A stretch of 64,000 nucleotides of DNA. It comes from Escherichia coli (lineage in GTDB: Bacteria; Pseudomonadota; Gammaproteobacteria; Enterobacterales; Enterobacteriaceae). Below are positions 57,247 through 60,265 of the stretch, in pieces. Below the pieces are notes generated by a model. That model had not been told where the DNA came from. It was given only the letters and a program-made list of their open reading frames with translations, and searched no databases. Location of the stretch: the NCBI RefSeq assembly GCF_003334355.1, contig NZ_QOWP01000005.1. One strand, written 5' to 3'. Within the stretch, counting starts at the first letter, position 1. Every line of letters starts with the position of its first letter. Both the position numbers and the translations under genes were made by a program.

Positions 57247-57262
57247 GTATTTTACAGGCAAT

Positions 57263-57292
57263 AAAAAACCGCCGAATTTGGCGGTTTTTTAT
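57263..57292 (+). terminator. Intrinsic terminator after sseA
   Basis: aaaaaa-ccgcc-gaatttg-ggcgg-tttttt (A-run, hairpin, T-run). Confidence 0.7.
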
Positions 57293-57590
57293 TGCTAGTC
57301 TGGTTCGCGGCCTTTCCAGCAGGTTGACTTGTGTTACATGAGCAACGCAGGTGCTTCACAGCAAAACAATACTCACCAGTAACTCTCTTTTTGTCAAGCA
57401 AAAGAGAGTAATTATTGTTTATTTAGCGTATTATCGACACCGGCCCTTTCCGCCGTGTTCGGTAATAAAATAACCTGGCTTATTAGTCCGAATTCAGACA
57501 AATATAAACAAATCCTGCTCAAAATTAAAAATTCTAACCGGTAAAAGATATTACTTAAACATGTAAATTCACTTTCCTTTAAAAAACAAA
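57287..57590 (+). ncRNA. ryfA: RyfA-like small RNA region (copy 1 of a tandemly duplicated unit)
   Basis: About 300 nt bounded by two intrinsic terminators, no ORF over 20 codons with a credible start; contains the 10-bp perfect inverted repeat actctctttt/aaaagagagt. A RyfA sRNA is described between sseA and sseB in E. coli. Boundaries approximate; strand inferred. Confidence 0.4.
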
Positions 57591-57618
57591 AAACCGCCAA
57601 AATCAGGCGGTTTTTTGT
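57585..57618 (+). terminator. Intrinsic terminator between the two repeat copies
   Basis: aaaaaacaaaaaa-ccgcc-aaaatca-ggcgg-tttttt. Confidence 0.7.
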
Positions 57619-57620
57619 TG

Positions 57621-57790
57621 CTGGTCCGGTTCGCGGCCTTTCCAGCAGGTTGTATTACCGTAGTAATGCAAGCGCGTCTCAGCGGAGACAATACTCGCCA
57701 GTAACTCTCTTTTTGTCAAGCAAAAGAGAGTTATTATTGTTCTGTTAGTGTATTATCCACTGCGGCCCTTTCCGCCGTCTCGCAAACGGG
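57621..57790 (+). repeat. Second copy of the RyfA-like unit (direct repeat of 57296-57465, period about 325 bp)
   Basis: Shared blocks ggttcgcggcctttccagcaggtt, caatactc[a/g]ccagtaactctctttttgtcaagcaaaagagagt[a/t]attattgtt and cggccctttccgccgt in the same order and spacing as copy 1, with diverged stretches in between. Confidence 0.7.
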
Positions 57791-57907
57791 CGCTGGCTTT
57801 AGGAAAGGATGTTCCGTGGCCGTAAATGCAGGTGTTTCACAGCGCTTGCTATCGCGGCAATATCGCCAGTGGTGCTGTCGTGATGCGGTCTTCGCATGGA
57901 CCGCACA

Positions 57908-58033
57908 ATGAAGATACGGTGCTTTTGTATCGTACTTATTGTTTCTGGTGCGCTGTTAACCGAGGTAAATAATAACCGGAGTCTCTCCGGCGATAATTTA
58001 CTGGTGGTTAACAACCTTCAGAGCAGCAAGTAA
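57908..58033 (+). CDS. Candidate small hydrophobic protein (41 aa), possible type I toxin of RyfA/TimP type
   Basis: ATG 57908 to TAA 58031-58033: MKIRCFCIVLIVSGALLTEVNNNRSLSGDNLLVVNNLQSSK; hydrophobic N-terminal stretch, followed directly by a terminator hairpin. No strong Shine-Dalgarno. Speculative. Confidence 0.25.
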   Translation: MKIRCFCIVLIVSGALLTEVNNNRSLSGDNLLVVNNLQSSK

Positions 58034-58036
58034 GCC

Positions 58037-58065
58037 CGAATGCCGCCCTTTGGGCGGCATATTTT
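58037..58065 (+). terminator. Intrinsic terminator at the end of the RyfA-like region
   Basis: Hairpin atgccgccc-ttt-gggcggcat followed by atttt, immediately before the sseB stop on the opposite strand. Confidence 0.65.
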
Positions 58066-58840
58066 AGATTATCCGATTCTGTTTAAAGTCACGCAAAAAA
58101 CCACCCCAGCGACGTTCATAGAATGGCGCAATATGTTCGGTAATAAAGTGGCTAATTCCTTTTTCCCCTTTTTTCACCTGACAAATATCGATTGGTTCAT
58201 CGCCAGGTAATGTATCGGTCGCTACACTTCCCGTCGCCTGAATAATTTCTTCGATATCACCATCGGCTTCAATGCCAATAAGTAAATTAGGCTGTGCCTC
58301 TTCGTTCTCTTTAATTGAACAAATAAAAGCACGCTTCACCGGCTTAATGGTTTTAAATAAGGTGGTGAGTGAATCAATCATTTGTGCTGGCGGCTCTGCG
58401 ACTTCCGATAATATCAGCGATTCACCGCCTTCCAGGATTTCCTGGCTGCTCAGCGGATTTCCCTCTTCACCAATCAACAAACTGATTTCACGCGGCATAA
58501 ATTCTTTACCGGTTGGCAGTTTGGCATTAAGGAAGAGCGTTTCGCCAAGTGTCATCTCAAACAGCGTGCGAACGGGCATTACGACAAATGCCTGTTCGTC
58601 TTCAACCGCCTGTTGAAGTGCTTCTAACGAGGTGAAAAAAGGAATGACGCTGGTGCCGTCTTCTTTTTCCCAGTGCTGTAAATCAAGCGCGCTATCTTCA
58701 ACCACAGCCTCGCCCTGCGCCGCCGTACCAGGCACCCAGACGGTGGATTCCAGTAGAGTACGGAAAAAGGCCGGGCGGTGCGCCGGTTCAGTTGCTGCTT
58801 TTTCCAGCAGGTCTTCAAGTTCGTTTTTTGTTTCGGACAT
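58064..58840 (-). CDS. sseB: Protein SseB (enhanced serine sensitivity protein)
   Basis: Track ORF 58064..58849; start at MSETKNELEDLLEKAATEPAHRPAFF gives about 258 aa. Confidence 0.88.
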   Translation of the reverse strand: MSETKNELEDLLEKAATEPAHRPAFFRTLLESTVWVPGTAAQGEAVVEDSALDLQHWEKEDGTSVIPFFTSLEALQQAVEDEQAFVVMPVRTLFEMTLGETLFLNAKLPTGKEFMPREISLLIGEEGNPLSSQEILEGGESLILSEVAEPPAQMIDSLTTLFKTIKPVKRAFICSIKENEEAQPNLLIGIEADGDIEEIIQATGSVATDTLPGDEPIDICQVKKGEKGISHFITEHIAPFYERRWGGFLRDFKQNRII

Positions 58841-58869: not shown

Positions 58870-58976
<107 letters not shown>

Positions 58977-58981
58977 TTAGT

Positions 58982-60265
58982 TTACGCCGTTAACAGATTA
59001 GCTATCGTGCGCACACCAAGTCCCGTAGCGCCCGCAGACCACTGTTCAACCGGCGCTTTACGGTAAGTCGCCGAGCAGTCGATATGCAGCCAGCCTTGCT
59101 GATAGTTCTCAACAAAGTGCGACAGGAAGCCCGCCGCCGTGCTCGCGCCTGCCGGATACGCCGCGCTTCCGGTATTGTTCAGTTCGGCAAAGTTAGACGG
59201 CAGCTGGCTGCGGTGGAACTCCGCCAGCGGCAGACGCCAGAACGGTTCGTTCTCCTGCGCGGCACTCGCCAGCAAGCGACCGGCCAGCGCATCGTCAAAA
59301 CTGAACAGCGCGTGATAATCATTACCCAGCGCAGTTTTCGCCGCCCCGGTGAGGGTCGCCGCATCAATGATCATTTCCGGTTTCTGCGCACTGGCATCAA
59401 TCAGACCATCGGCAAGCACCAGACGCCCTTCGGCATCAGTGTTCATCACTTCAACTTTTTTACCGTTGCGATAGGTGATGATATCGCCCAGCTTGAACGC
59501 ATTGCCGCTAATCAGGTTATCCGCACAGCAGAGGAACAGCTTCACGCGCTTGTTCAGTCCGCGCGTAATGGCAAATGCCAGCGCCCCGGTAACCGTTGCC
59601 GCGCCGCCCATGTCCGACTTCATCGAGTCCATAAACGCAGTCTGTTTGATGCTGTAGCCGCCGGAGTCAAAAGTGATACCTTTACCTACCAGGCACGCGT
59701 ACACTGGCGCTTCTTTATCGCCAGTTGGGTTGCAATCCAGCGCCAGCAATACCGGAGAACGTTCTGAACCGCGTCCGACGGTGTGCAGCCCCATATAACC
59801 TTGCTCACGCAGATCTTCGCCTTTGGTGATCCGATAAGTCACACGATCGCCCGCGACGTTGCTGATCAGATCAACAGCACGCTGTGCCAGTTGCGATGGT
59901 CCCAATTCTTCTGCCGGTGCGTTGATGGTGTCACGCACCCAGTCGATGATCATCAGGCGGTTATCCAGTTCCTGGCGCTGGGCATCGTCCAGATCCGGCC
60001 ACTCCACTTTACGCGTGCCTTTCGGGGCTTTGTAACCTTGCCAGAATGCCCAGCAGCGATCCGCATCCCAACCTTCACCGCTTAACTGAACATGCTTGAT
60101 GCCCAGACCGTCAATCTTGCGGGCCGCACGCTGGATCAGCCCCAGATCGTCTGCCCCGTTCAAATGCAGGGTAATGCCATCATTATTAATGCTGTAAGTT
60201 GCTTTTTCTCCCCAGCGCGCGTCGGCAGGTTGGGTAGAGAGGGTAATTTTCATCGCTTCTGTCAT
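58982..60265 (-). CDS. pepB: Peptidase B (M17 leucyl aminopeptidase family)
   Basis: 427-aa [33 protein letters not shown]... with the M17 active-site motif NTDAEGRL. Confidence 0.95.

Follow-up and report, generated by a model that had tools for sequence, protein, structure and literature searches.

The window analyzed here is a 64,000-nt stretch of an Escherichia coli chromosome of the K-12 type (assembly GCF_003334355.1, contig NZ_QOWP01000005.1), in which yfhM, sseA, an 817-bp spacer, sseB (minus strand), and pepB follow one another. The spacer contains timPR (ryfA/ryfB), a known type I toxin-antitoxin locus; it is not a new system, and its known mechanism is unchanged. The first-pass annotation of the sequence had proposed RyfA, TimP, and TimR at this place, in agreement with the Rfam ryfA match at 57762-58065 (314 bits) and with the NCBIfam TimP model (86.8 bits against a cut-off of 45). 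Our overall reading, which we hold with good confidence, is that the spacer represents a decayed, mosaic tandem duplication of timPR that keeps two antitoxin genes and one toxin gene, and that the antitoxin copy distal to the toxin is the cognate one.

About 200 bp of the spacer are present twice as direct copies, with an offset of 322 to 326 bp and conserved blocks that are 84 to 90% identical. A block of 64 nt (57263-57326 versus 57589-57652; 84% identity, offset 326 bp) and another of 91 nt (57366-57456 versus 57688-57778; 90% identity, offset 322 bp) confirm the tandem duplication noticed at first reading. Between them lies a diverged middle, longer in copy 1 (57327-57365, 39 nt) than in copy 2 (57653-57687, 35 nt), and the offset shifts because of this difference in length. 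Each repeated unit is a minus-strand timR (ryfB) gene for an antitoxin small RNA (sRNA), which has its own promoter, a variable seed at the 5' end, a pair of hairpins, and a Rho-independent terminator; the unit also takes in the divergent promoters and ~17 nt from the start of ryfA. What the window has twice is therefore the antitoxin gene with these promoters and the beginning of ryfA, and not an entire toxin-antitoxin module; the first toxin has been deleted. The features are listed below; scores for timR refer to a covariance model (CM) described in the next section, UTR stands for untranslated region, and SL2 for stem-loop 2 of the timP mRNA.

57258-57295, both strands: bidirectional terminator T1, ending sseA (plus) and timR copy 1 (minus); inverted repeat with 19-nt arms, 95% complementary, with A-run and T-run flanks, at the 3' end of the CM match
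57261-57363, minus strand: timR copy 1 (TimR-A, distal), gene of a ~102-nt antitoxin sRNA, equal to the K-12 transcript ES139; CM 80 bits, E 1.7e-14, full length
57347-57362, minus strand: seed of TimR-A, GCUGUGAAGCACCUGC, complementary to the timP 5'UTR at 57828-57843; 16/16 pairs, one of them G-U, extendable to 20 contiguous bp
57369-57397, minus strand: promoter of timR copy 1, read from the sequence; -35 TTGACA (57397-57392), 17-nt spacer, -10 GAGTAT (57374-57369)
57429-57456, plus strand: remnant of the first ryfA/timP, with -10 TATTAT (57429-57434) and the first ~17 nt (GGCCCTTTCCGCCGT, 57442-57456), followed by the deletion; aligns to 57751-57778 of the intact gene
57457-57469, no strand: final 13 nt of an sseB 3' fragment that was duplicated (GTTCGGTAATAAA), forming the right flank of the deletion junction; 14-nt exact repeat of sseB 58134-58147
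57470-57584, no strand: AT-rich inter-unit spacer, core of the Rfam family IS128 (RF00125, 57422-57630; 262 bits)
57585-57619, both strands: bidirectional terminator T2, 3' end of timR copy 2 (minus) and of any plus-strand transcript from the remnant of the first ryfA; inverted repeat with 14-nt arms, 100% complementary, at the 3' end of the CM match
57587-57685, minus strand: timR copy 2 (TimR-B, proximal), gene of a ~99-nt sRNA, equal to the K-12 transcript ECS011/IS129/ES141; CM 99.6 bits, E 2e-18, full length
57668-57684, minus strand: seed of TimR-B, CGCUGAGACGCGCUUGC; 17 perfect bp with timP of the single-copy E. coli L002 and L005
57691-57719, minus strand: promoter of timR copy 2, read from the sequence; -35 TTGACA (57719-57714), 17-nt spacer, -10 GAGTAT (57696-57691)
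57762-58065, plus strand: ryfA, the timP mRNA, 304 nt; Rfam RF00126, 314 bits, E 1e-87, full length
57828-57843, plus strand: TimR target in SL2 of the timP 5'UTR (ryfA nt 67-82), including the TGTTT variable region; from complementarity and cofolding
57908-58033, plus strand: timP coding sequence, 41 aa, MKIRCFCIVLIVSGALLTEVNNNRSLSGDNLLVVNNLQSSK; NCBIfam NF040796 (toxic_TimP), 86.8 bits against 45
58040-58060, plus strand: intrinsic terminator of the timP mRNA, 9-bp stem with 7 GC pairs and a T-rich tail, at the 3' end of the Rfam ryfA match

Two timR genes and a single timP gene

Homologues were collected by nhmmer from the sseB neighbourhoods of 80 enterobacterial species, and timR was found in Salmonella arizonae and diarizonae, several Citrobacter, Superficieibacter, and E. 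whittamii. The CM was built from 11 non-Escherichia TimR homologues only (S. arizonae and diarizonae, Citrobacter, and Superficieibacter). It matched the minus strand at copy 2 (57585-57686, 99.6 bits) and copy 1 (57260-57365, 80 bits), and the remaining matches in the 64-kb window were two weak plus-strand ones centred on the two terminators. Compared by eye with TimR of Salmonella SL1344, reconstructed from the published T7-template oligonucleotides EHO-1419 and EHO-1420, the homologues were near-identical, with two single-base length differences. The consensus derived from the alignment comprises a free 5' seed, two hairpins, and the terminator, and nine of its pairs show compensatory changes, for example GUUGC/GCAAC versus AUUAC/GUAAU between the two copies in the window. 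This anatomy is that described for TimR/RyfB (PMC7667032, PMC5333039), an sRNA of ~100 nt that is encoded upstream of timP/ryfA in divergent orientation, is complementary by its 5' end to the 5'UTR of timP, and closes with an intrinsic terminator.

Read in the minus-strand direction, each unit consists of a -35 TTGACA, a 17-nt spacer, a -10 GAGTAT, a start ~6 nt further on, the diverged core, the conserved body (CCUGCUGGAAAGGCCGCGAACC.GAC.AGCA), and the terminator. The -35 is perfect and embedded in the palindrome ACTCTCTTTTTGTCAAGCAAAAGAGAGT, and a Salmonella timR deletion primer (oligonucleotide EHO-1349) shows the same promoter in both hexamers and spacing. The two genes are divergent to ryfA and do not overlap it (+1 of copy 2 at 57685, +1 of ryfA at 57762). 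Measured to the Salmonella-equivalent +1 of the timP mRNA (GGCCCTTTCC, at 57764), copy 2 starts 79 nt upstream, the same distance that separates the start of copy 1 from the homologous position in the remnant (57442). At first reading each unit had been described as preceded by its own terminator; both terminators are real palindromes and, being flanked by an A-run and a T-run, can be read as terminators on either strand, but the units are minus-strand genes of which they form the 3' ends.

As a separate observation, the timR -35 lies inside a 10- to 14-bp perfect palindrome, ACTCTCTTTT-N8-AAAAGAGAGT (57380-57409 and 57702-57733), which also displays TTGTCA on the plus strand. It is retained in type A and B alleles, is replaced in the O157 (type C) allele, and has the look of an operator that timR and ryfA share, or of a bidirectional promoter element lying between them.

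Whether the two copies are both transcribed, and on which strand, had been left unanswered by the first-pass annotation, and published K-12 data settle the point. K-12 coordinates were converted with an offset of 2,594,115 for U00096.2, fixed independently by the positions of ryfA and IS128. Shinhara et al. gave a 71-nt sequence for ECS011 (= IS129) and Northern bands of ~95 to 100 nt; the sequence agrees base for base with the minus strand of copy 2 from 57685 onward, and this mapped 5' end lies 6 nt downstream of the -10. In the transcriptome sequencing of Rau et al., ES141 (minus strand; mean expression value [MEV], 30.6) falls at 57585-57685 after conversion, and ES139 (2651377-2651477, minus strand; MEV, 10.5) at 57262-57362, a length of ~101 nt, so that its 5' end agrees with the +1 predicted for copy 1 at 57363/57362; RyfA had a MEV of 12.7. 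Because the coordinates of ECS011, ES139, and ES141 fit the two units, both timR copies are made in K-12 as minus-strand RNAs of ~100 nt, with the ends that the sequence predicts. Our literature search, in open-access text only, found no paper tying IS129, ECS011, ES139, ES141, or STnc2070 to TimR.

Two further K-12 transcripts map nearby. ES140 (minus strand, 94 nt; MEV, 4.6; Rau et al.) lies at 57442-57535, in the AT-rich spacer and the ryfA remnant; it matches neither TimR copy, and no promoter or terminator is evident for it. C0614, an array-derived sRNA (Tjaden 2002), maps to 57359-57445 (minus strand), that is, to the promoter region of copy 1 upstream of its start; it corresponds to neither TimR, has almost no reads in two transcriptome studies, and probably reflects either noise or TimR-A detected with wrong boundaries.

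Two other proposals about the units were considered and set aside. Rfam matches of the minus-strand units to OhsC, AgrB, OrzO-P, RNAI, and the rimP leader (23 to 35 bits) were all below gathering and located on the terminators. An origin of timR as an antisense copy of the ryfA 5'UTR found no backing either, as the similarity beyond the seed, GCGGCC(C)TTTCC, was reached by 50 of 500 shuffles and is not significant.

The plus-strand ryfA downstream of copy 2 is the only toxin gene; its Rfam and NCBIfam matches fit a ryfA-type RNA structure and a TimP ORF whose N-terminus resembles a signal peptide. A tblastn search with TimP gave nothing in 57247-57761, where no TimP-like open reading frame was seen, and RefSeq annotates timP at the equivalent position in identical genomes. 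The gene was present in all of the 5,426 complete E. coli genomes that made up our population set. One clinical isolate (L004, 783-1684) carries IS1A inserted in the timP ORF, annotated as two pseudogene pieces, and is a natural toxin knock-out with timR intact.

Seed and target pairing

The 16-mer GCAGGTGYTTCACAGC occurs exactly twice in the 64 kb, at 57347-57362 and 57828-57843. The chance expectation is 0.09 matches even with two mismatches allowed, and none of 100 shuffles gave two. The first-pass annotation had placed the first occurrence one base off, at 57348, and had taken the recurrence as a trace of duplication and rearrangement; the two occurrences are real, but they are not just a relic, forming what is probably a functional antisense seed/target pair, which co-varies in every species and E. 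coli allele examined. By its complementarity, the repeat is the antisense seed of copy 1 matching the SL2 target of timP. That target falls within a hairpin predicted at ryfA nt 67-88 and lies roughly where TimR protects SL2 in Salmonella (G76 in the numbering of the Salmonella mRNA; PMC11228461).

The two seeds differ in how they fit this target. On the timP of the window, the longest helix of the TimR-B seed is 11 contiguous bp, with two mismatches and three G-U pairs by inspection across the 17-nt site. The same seed is a perfect 17-bp match to the CGCGT-type timP carried by single-copy E. coli, AR_0069 and MNCRE44 among them, and O157:H7 carries a third matched seed/target pair. The SL2 targets of E. 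coli correspond to the variable-region variants TGTTT (the one in the window), CGCGT, and CACCC of Fris et al., who described TGTTT, CGCGT, CACCC, and CCCCC (PMC5333039).

Whole-molecule duplexes computed with RNAduplex were uninformative (~-70 kcal/mol for both copies) and were replaced by seed-only duplexes and by cofolding of full-length TimR on timP nt 1-151, with unfolding costs included. The net cofold energies (ddG) were as follows.

TimR-A on timP-A: -23.0 kcal/mol
TimR-B on timP-B: -19.5 kcal/mol
TimR-C on timP-C: -22.2 kcal/mol
Non-cognate pairs: -7 to -14 kcal/mol
TimR-B on the timP of the window: -13.8 kcal/mol, in the non-cognate range

The cognate pairs on the diagonal of the matrix are thus the strongest. 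Seed and SL2 loop also co-vary in all 15 loci that hold both timR and ryfA matches (including the collapsed alleles L021 and L025, see below) in a table limited to Escherichia, Salmonella, Citrobacter, and Superficieibacter, since ryfA of most of the more distant genera escaped single-sequence nhmmer; the same co-variation is seen across the three E. coli alleles. From the complementarity, the energies, and the allele co-variation, we infer that the distal TimR-A is the cognate antitoxin of the resident timP and that the proximal TimR-B cross-reacts at best partially.

Salmonella TimR binds by base pairing to the SL2 loop in the 5'UTR of timP and breaks up a pseudoknot between stem-loops 1 and 3 (SL1-SL3) that is required for translation (PMC11228461). 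Repression of TimP translation and rescue from toxicity have been demonstrated for Salmonella TimR only, and mutations in its seed abolished the rescue. By analogy, the 5' end of each TimR in the window would pair with the SL2 loop in the timP 5'UTR and block the SL1-SL3 pseudoknot needed for translation, so that no TimP would be made. TimR-A (57261-57363) would act as the cognate repressor in this genome, and TimR-B (57587-57685), with the seed of a CGCGT-type allele, would cross-pair only partly with the TGTTT-type target through G-U wobbles. The arrangement of A-seed, deletion, B-seed, and A-target would represent a recombinant between alleles, tolerable because the cognate antitoxin is retained.

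Deletion scar, mosaic alleles, and distribution

Among the complete genomes, ~179 surplus timP matches pointed to intact tandems, two of which were compared with the window. CFSAN061771 (L087) has the order [timR-B/timP-B]-'sseB(84 nt)-spacer-T2-[timR-A/timP-A], and 23CRST027 (L088) the order [C/C]-'sseB-spacer-[B/B]. Both contain two full ryfA genes by Rfam with an IS128 match between them, and in both the 84-nt 'sseB fragment is complete and annotated as a pseudogene. Every repeat unit has its own toxin ORF in these two genomes but not in the window, where unit 1 keeps the promoter and ~17 nt of ryfA. Therefore, what was duplicated comprised timR, timP, and the 3' end of sseB. Compared with L087, 357 bp are missing from the window, between nt ~18 of the first ryfA and a point within the 'sseB fragment, and the junction reads GCCGT|GTTCGGTAATAAA, its right half being the 14-nt repeat of sseB 58134-58147. 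Judging from this alignment, the first timP was removed by a 357-bp deletion, and Rfam IS128 is its scar.

A comparison by segments reveals the mosaic. Similarity to the single-copy A allele of CFT073 is seen in copy 1 and again in the SL2 of ryfA, which is 100% identical to it; the seed and promoters of copy 2 are 100% identical to a single-copy B allele, and the point of switching falls within the invariant GGCCCTTTCCGCCGTCTCGCAA. The mosaic may have arisen by conversion of unit 2 in an A array with a B-type patch, or by a crossover that linked a left half of B type to a timP of A type.

Toxin loss is not restricted to this arrangement. A second two-unit haplotype (L006, 461-553, minus strand; L089, 1041-1146, minus strand) has lost the first timP through a different, larger deletion, and therefore toxin loss with antitoxin retention happened more than once. 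The timR in the first unit of this haplotype carries a "type D" seed (GUAGACGAGAUACACUUGCAG), a shortened first hairpin, and an intact TTGACA-17-GAGTAT promoter, and no timP matching this seed was found in the same genome, with best duplexes of -17 to -18 kcal/mol. Outside E. coli, a timR homologue stands right after sseB with no ryfA at the Rfam gathering score in C. werkmanii (L013, 3392-3492), C. braakii (L014, 1146-1245), and Superficieibacter sp. (L053, 3377-3477); these look like orphan antitoxin genes after toxin loss. In S. arizonae (L025, 3290-3600) and a Citrobacter amalonaticus-like species (L021, 3290-3606), the timR body, in antisense, runs straight into the SL2 target of timP, with neither divergent promoter present and ryfA nt ~1-60 lacking. 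This form would be the expected product of recombination between the ~16- to 20-nt direct repeat of seed antisense and target, and suggests that the locus can collapse on itself.

Within the population set, the same 1,101-bp stretch as in the window was found at an identity of at least 99% in 1,516 genomes (~28%). A further band at 90 to 95% identity comprised 3,458 of the 5,426, and its sampled members were 325 bp shorter, that is, by one unit. Taking the AT-rich inter-unit spacer as a marker, the two-unit form was present in 2,244/5,426 genomes (41%), at this locus only.

Outside the spacer, a repetitive extragenic palindromic (REP)-type element between sseB and pepB (58943-58987) gave sub-threshold Rfam matches to naRNA4 (40 bits against a gathering score of 59.5) and ES036.

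Alternative readings and comparison with known systems

Several observations weigh against the distal copy as the main repressor. In K-12 the level of TimR-B is about threefold that of TimR-A (MEV 30.6 for ES141 versus 10.5 for ES139), and on the resident target the seed-only duplex of TimR-B is just 3.7 kcal/mol weaker (-33.4 versus -37.1), a gap of less than 4 kcal/mol. Being abundant and able to form the 11-bp helix with flanking pairs, TimR-B may contribute substantially or even dominate. Carried further, TimR-B would be the working antitoxin through wobble-tolerant pairing, and copy 1 a transcribed leftover without a role; the adjacent, divergent position of TimR-B is the canonical arrangement, as in Salmonella (PMC7667032), and the differences between the TGTTT and CGCGT targets are largely transitions that preserve G-U pairs. 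We consider this version unlikely. When full-length RNAs are cofolded and unfolding costs are counted, pairing of the proximal copy is 9 kcal/mol weaker than that of the distal one and falls in the non-cognate range, in what are thermodynamic predictions that ignore pseudoknot conformation and chaperones such as ProQ. Furthermore, rescue was abolished by the seed mutations in Salmonella, RyfB1 of Shigella dysenteriae reduced the levels of RyfA1 but not of RyfA2, and the single-copy A-type CFT073 couples the same timP allele with a TimR-A seed. The joint occurrence of timR-A and timP-A in the population must be read with more reserve, given that it rests on near-equal totals (2,021/5,426 genomes with the timR-A seed and 1,975/5,426 with the timP-A target) and no per-genome table.

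A broader objection is that ryfA phenotypes in uropathogenic and avian pathogenic E. coli (UPEC and APEC) are reported as independent of the TimP ORF, with little effect of timR deletion (PMC8205139, PMC13188913), and the toxin-antitoxin view may not capture the main role of the locus in E. coli. The two TimR paralogues could mainly regulate other mRNAs, with timP repression secondary, which would explain the persistence of antitoxins without toxins, such as the timR homologues without ryfA in C. werkmanii, C. braakii, and Superficieibacter sp. or the type D timR with its intact promoter and no matching timP. Along the same line, the APEC phenotypes of ryfA deletion vanish when timR is also deleted, which suggests that TimR acts elsewhere without RyfA (PMC13188913). 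However, no other TimR target is known, and the seed, the fastest-evolving part of the RNA, tracks the SL2 of timP exactly, as is the signature of a dedicated antitoxin, so that we rate a mainly trans-acting role as less likely still. Very improbable is a plus-strand sRNA starting after each terminator, the orientation of the first-pass annotation, with IS128 (57422-57630) as a genuine sRNA gene. The 262 bits of RF00125, a promoter-like TTGTCA-16-TATTGT on the plus strand of both copies, and a low transcriptome signal for IS128 (MEV, 4.4; Rau et al.) speak for it; however, Shinhara et al. did not detect the plus-strand IS128 RNA with a strand-specific Northern probe, and both the CM and the conserved structure fall on the minus strand. 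The IS128 segment itself is a chimera of the ryfA promoter plus 17 nt, the sseB fragment, the spacer, and T2, is missing from 59% of E. coli, and in the intact tandems is a mere spacer between two units. Lastly, the suspicion that the repeat had been expanded or collapsed during assembly is refuted by its presence, at an identity of at least 99%, in 1,516 independent complete genomes and by the 2,244 genomes with the inter-unit spacer; the copies differ by 10 to 16% and by the 39/35-nt diverged core, and hence are not confusable by an assembler.

Returning to the reading with a cognate distal TimR-A, three of its elements go beyond the published statements that we found, namely two TimR paralogues of different specificity for one toxin, the distal one as the better match, and IS128 as a deletion scar; a two-antitoxin, one-toxin reading was absent from the literature found, in open-access text only. 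A more speculative extension, which we offer tentatively, is that timPR is a recombining set of at least three to four seed/target specificity alleles (TGTTT, CGCGT, CACCC, and others), with cassettes shuffled between conserved flanks. K-12-type strains would be chimeric, carrying a distal cognate and a proximal antitoxin of foreign specificity, and orphan antitoxins might be kept for pre-empting incoming or recombinant timP alleles (anti-addiction) or for separate trans targets. If so, deletion of the adjacent timR copy alone in K-12 would be uninformative.

In practical terms, "timR" in K-12 and in about one-quarter to two-fifths of E. coli denotes two genes with different seeds, and deleting or overexpressing only the copy adjacent to timP may miss the cognate repressor. 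ES139 and ES141/ECS011/IS129 could be re-annotated as TimR paralogues and Rfam IS128 as a deletion scar. The locus offers a compact natural case of a seed and target co-evolving as discrete alleles, with heteroallelic tandems, repeated toxin loss, and antitoxin retention, in which type I specificity and cross-talk could be tested in just a few strains.

Other chromosomal type I loci have divergent trans-acting antitoxins and tandem copies, among them zorO-orzO, shoB-ohsC, tisB-istR1, ibs/sib, and ldr/rdl. They resemble timPR in that a short antisense seed is encoded apart from the toxin ORF and that seed divergence after duplication insulates the copies. To our knowledge, none of them has a sequence relationship to timPR, and in the window the Rfam matches to OhsC, OrzO, and AgrB were weak (25 to 30 bits), terminator-driven, and below threshold.

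The closest relative is timP/TimR of Salmonella Typhimurium (Andresen 2020, PMC7667032; PMC11228461; PMC13000454). The toxin belongs to the same family (NCBIfam TimP; Rfam ryfA), and so does the antitoxin, which shares the promoter hexamers, the pairing of the 5' seed with SL2, and the divergent, non-overlapping genes beside sseB. Unlike Salmonella, the window has two antitoxin genes with different seeds for one toxin, and its best-matched antitoxin lies ~400 bp off behind a deletion scar, while the adjacent one fits another allele.

The sibling pairs RyfA1/RyfB1 and RyfA2/RyfB2 of S. dysenteriae, by their published description (Fris 2017, PMC5333039), are a tandem duplication at the same locus with divergent sRNAs of ~100 nt. 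They share with the window a 5-nt variable region (TGTTT in the window) inside the pairing site, and in S. dysenteriae repression is specific to the cognate sibling. Unlike the window, whose first ryfA is deleted, S. dysenteriae retains both ryfA genes. The intact E. coli tandems of CFSAN061771 and 23CRST027 have the units, the 'sseB fragment, the AT-rich spacer, and T2 in common with the window. They hold two complete, internally matched pairs (B/B plus A/A and C/C plus B/B, respectively), whereas the window has one toxin in a crossed arrangement.

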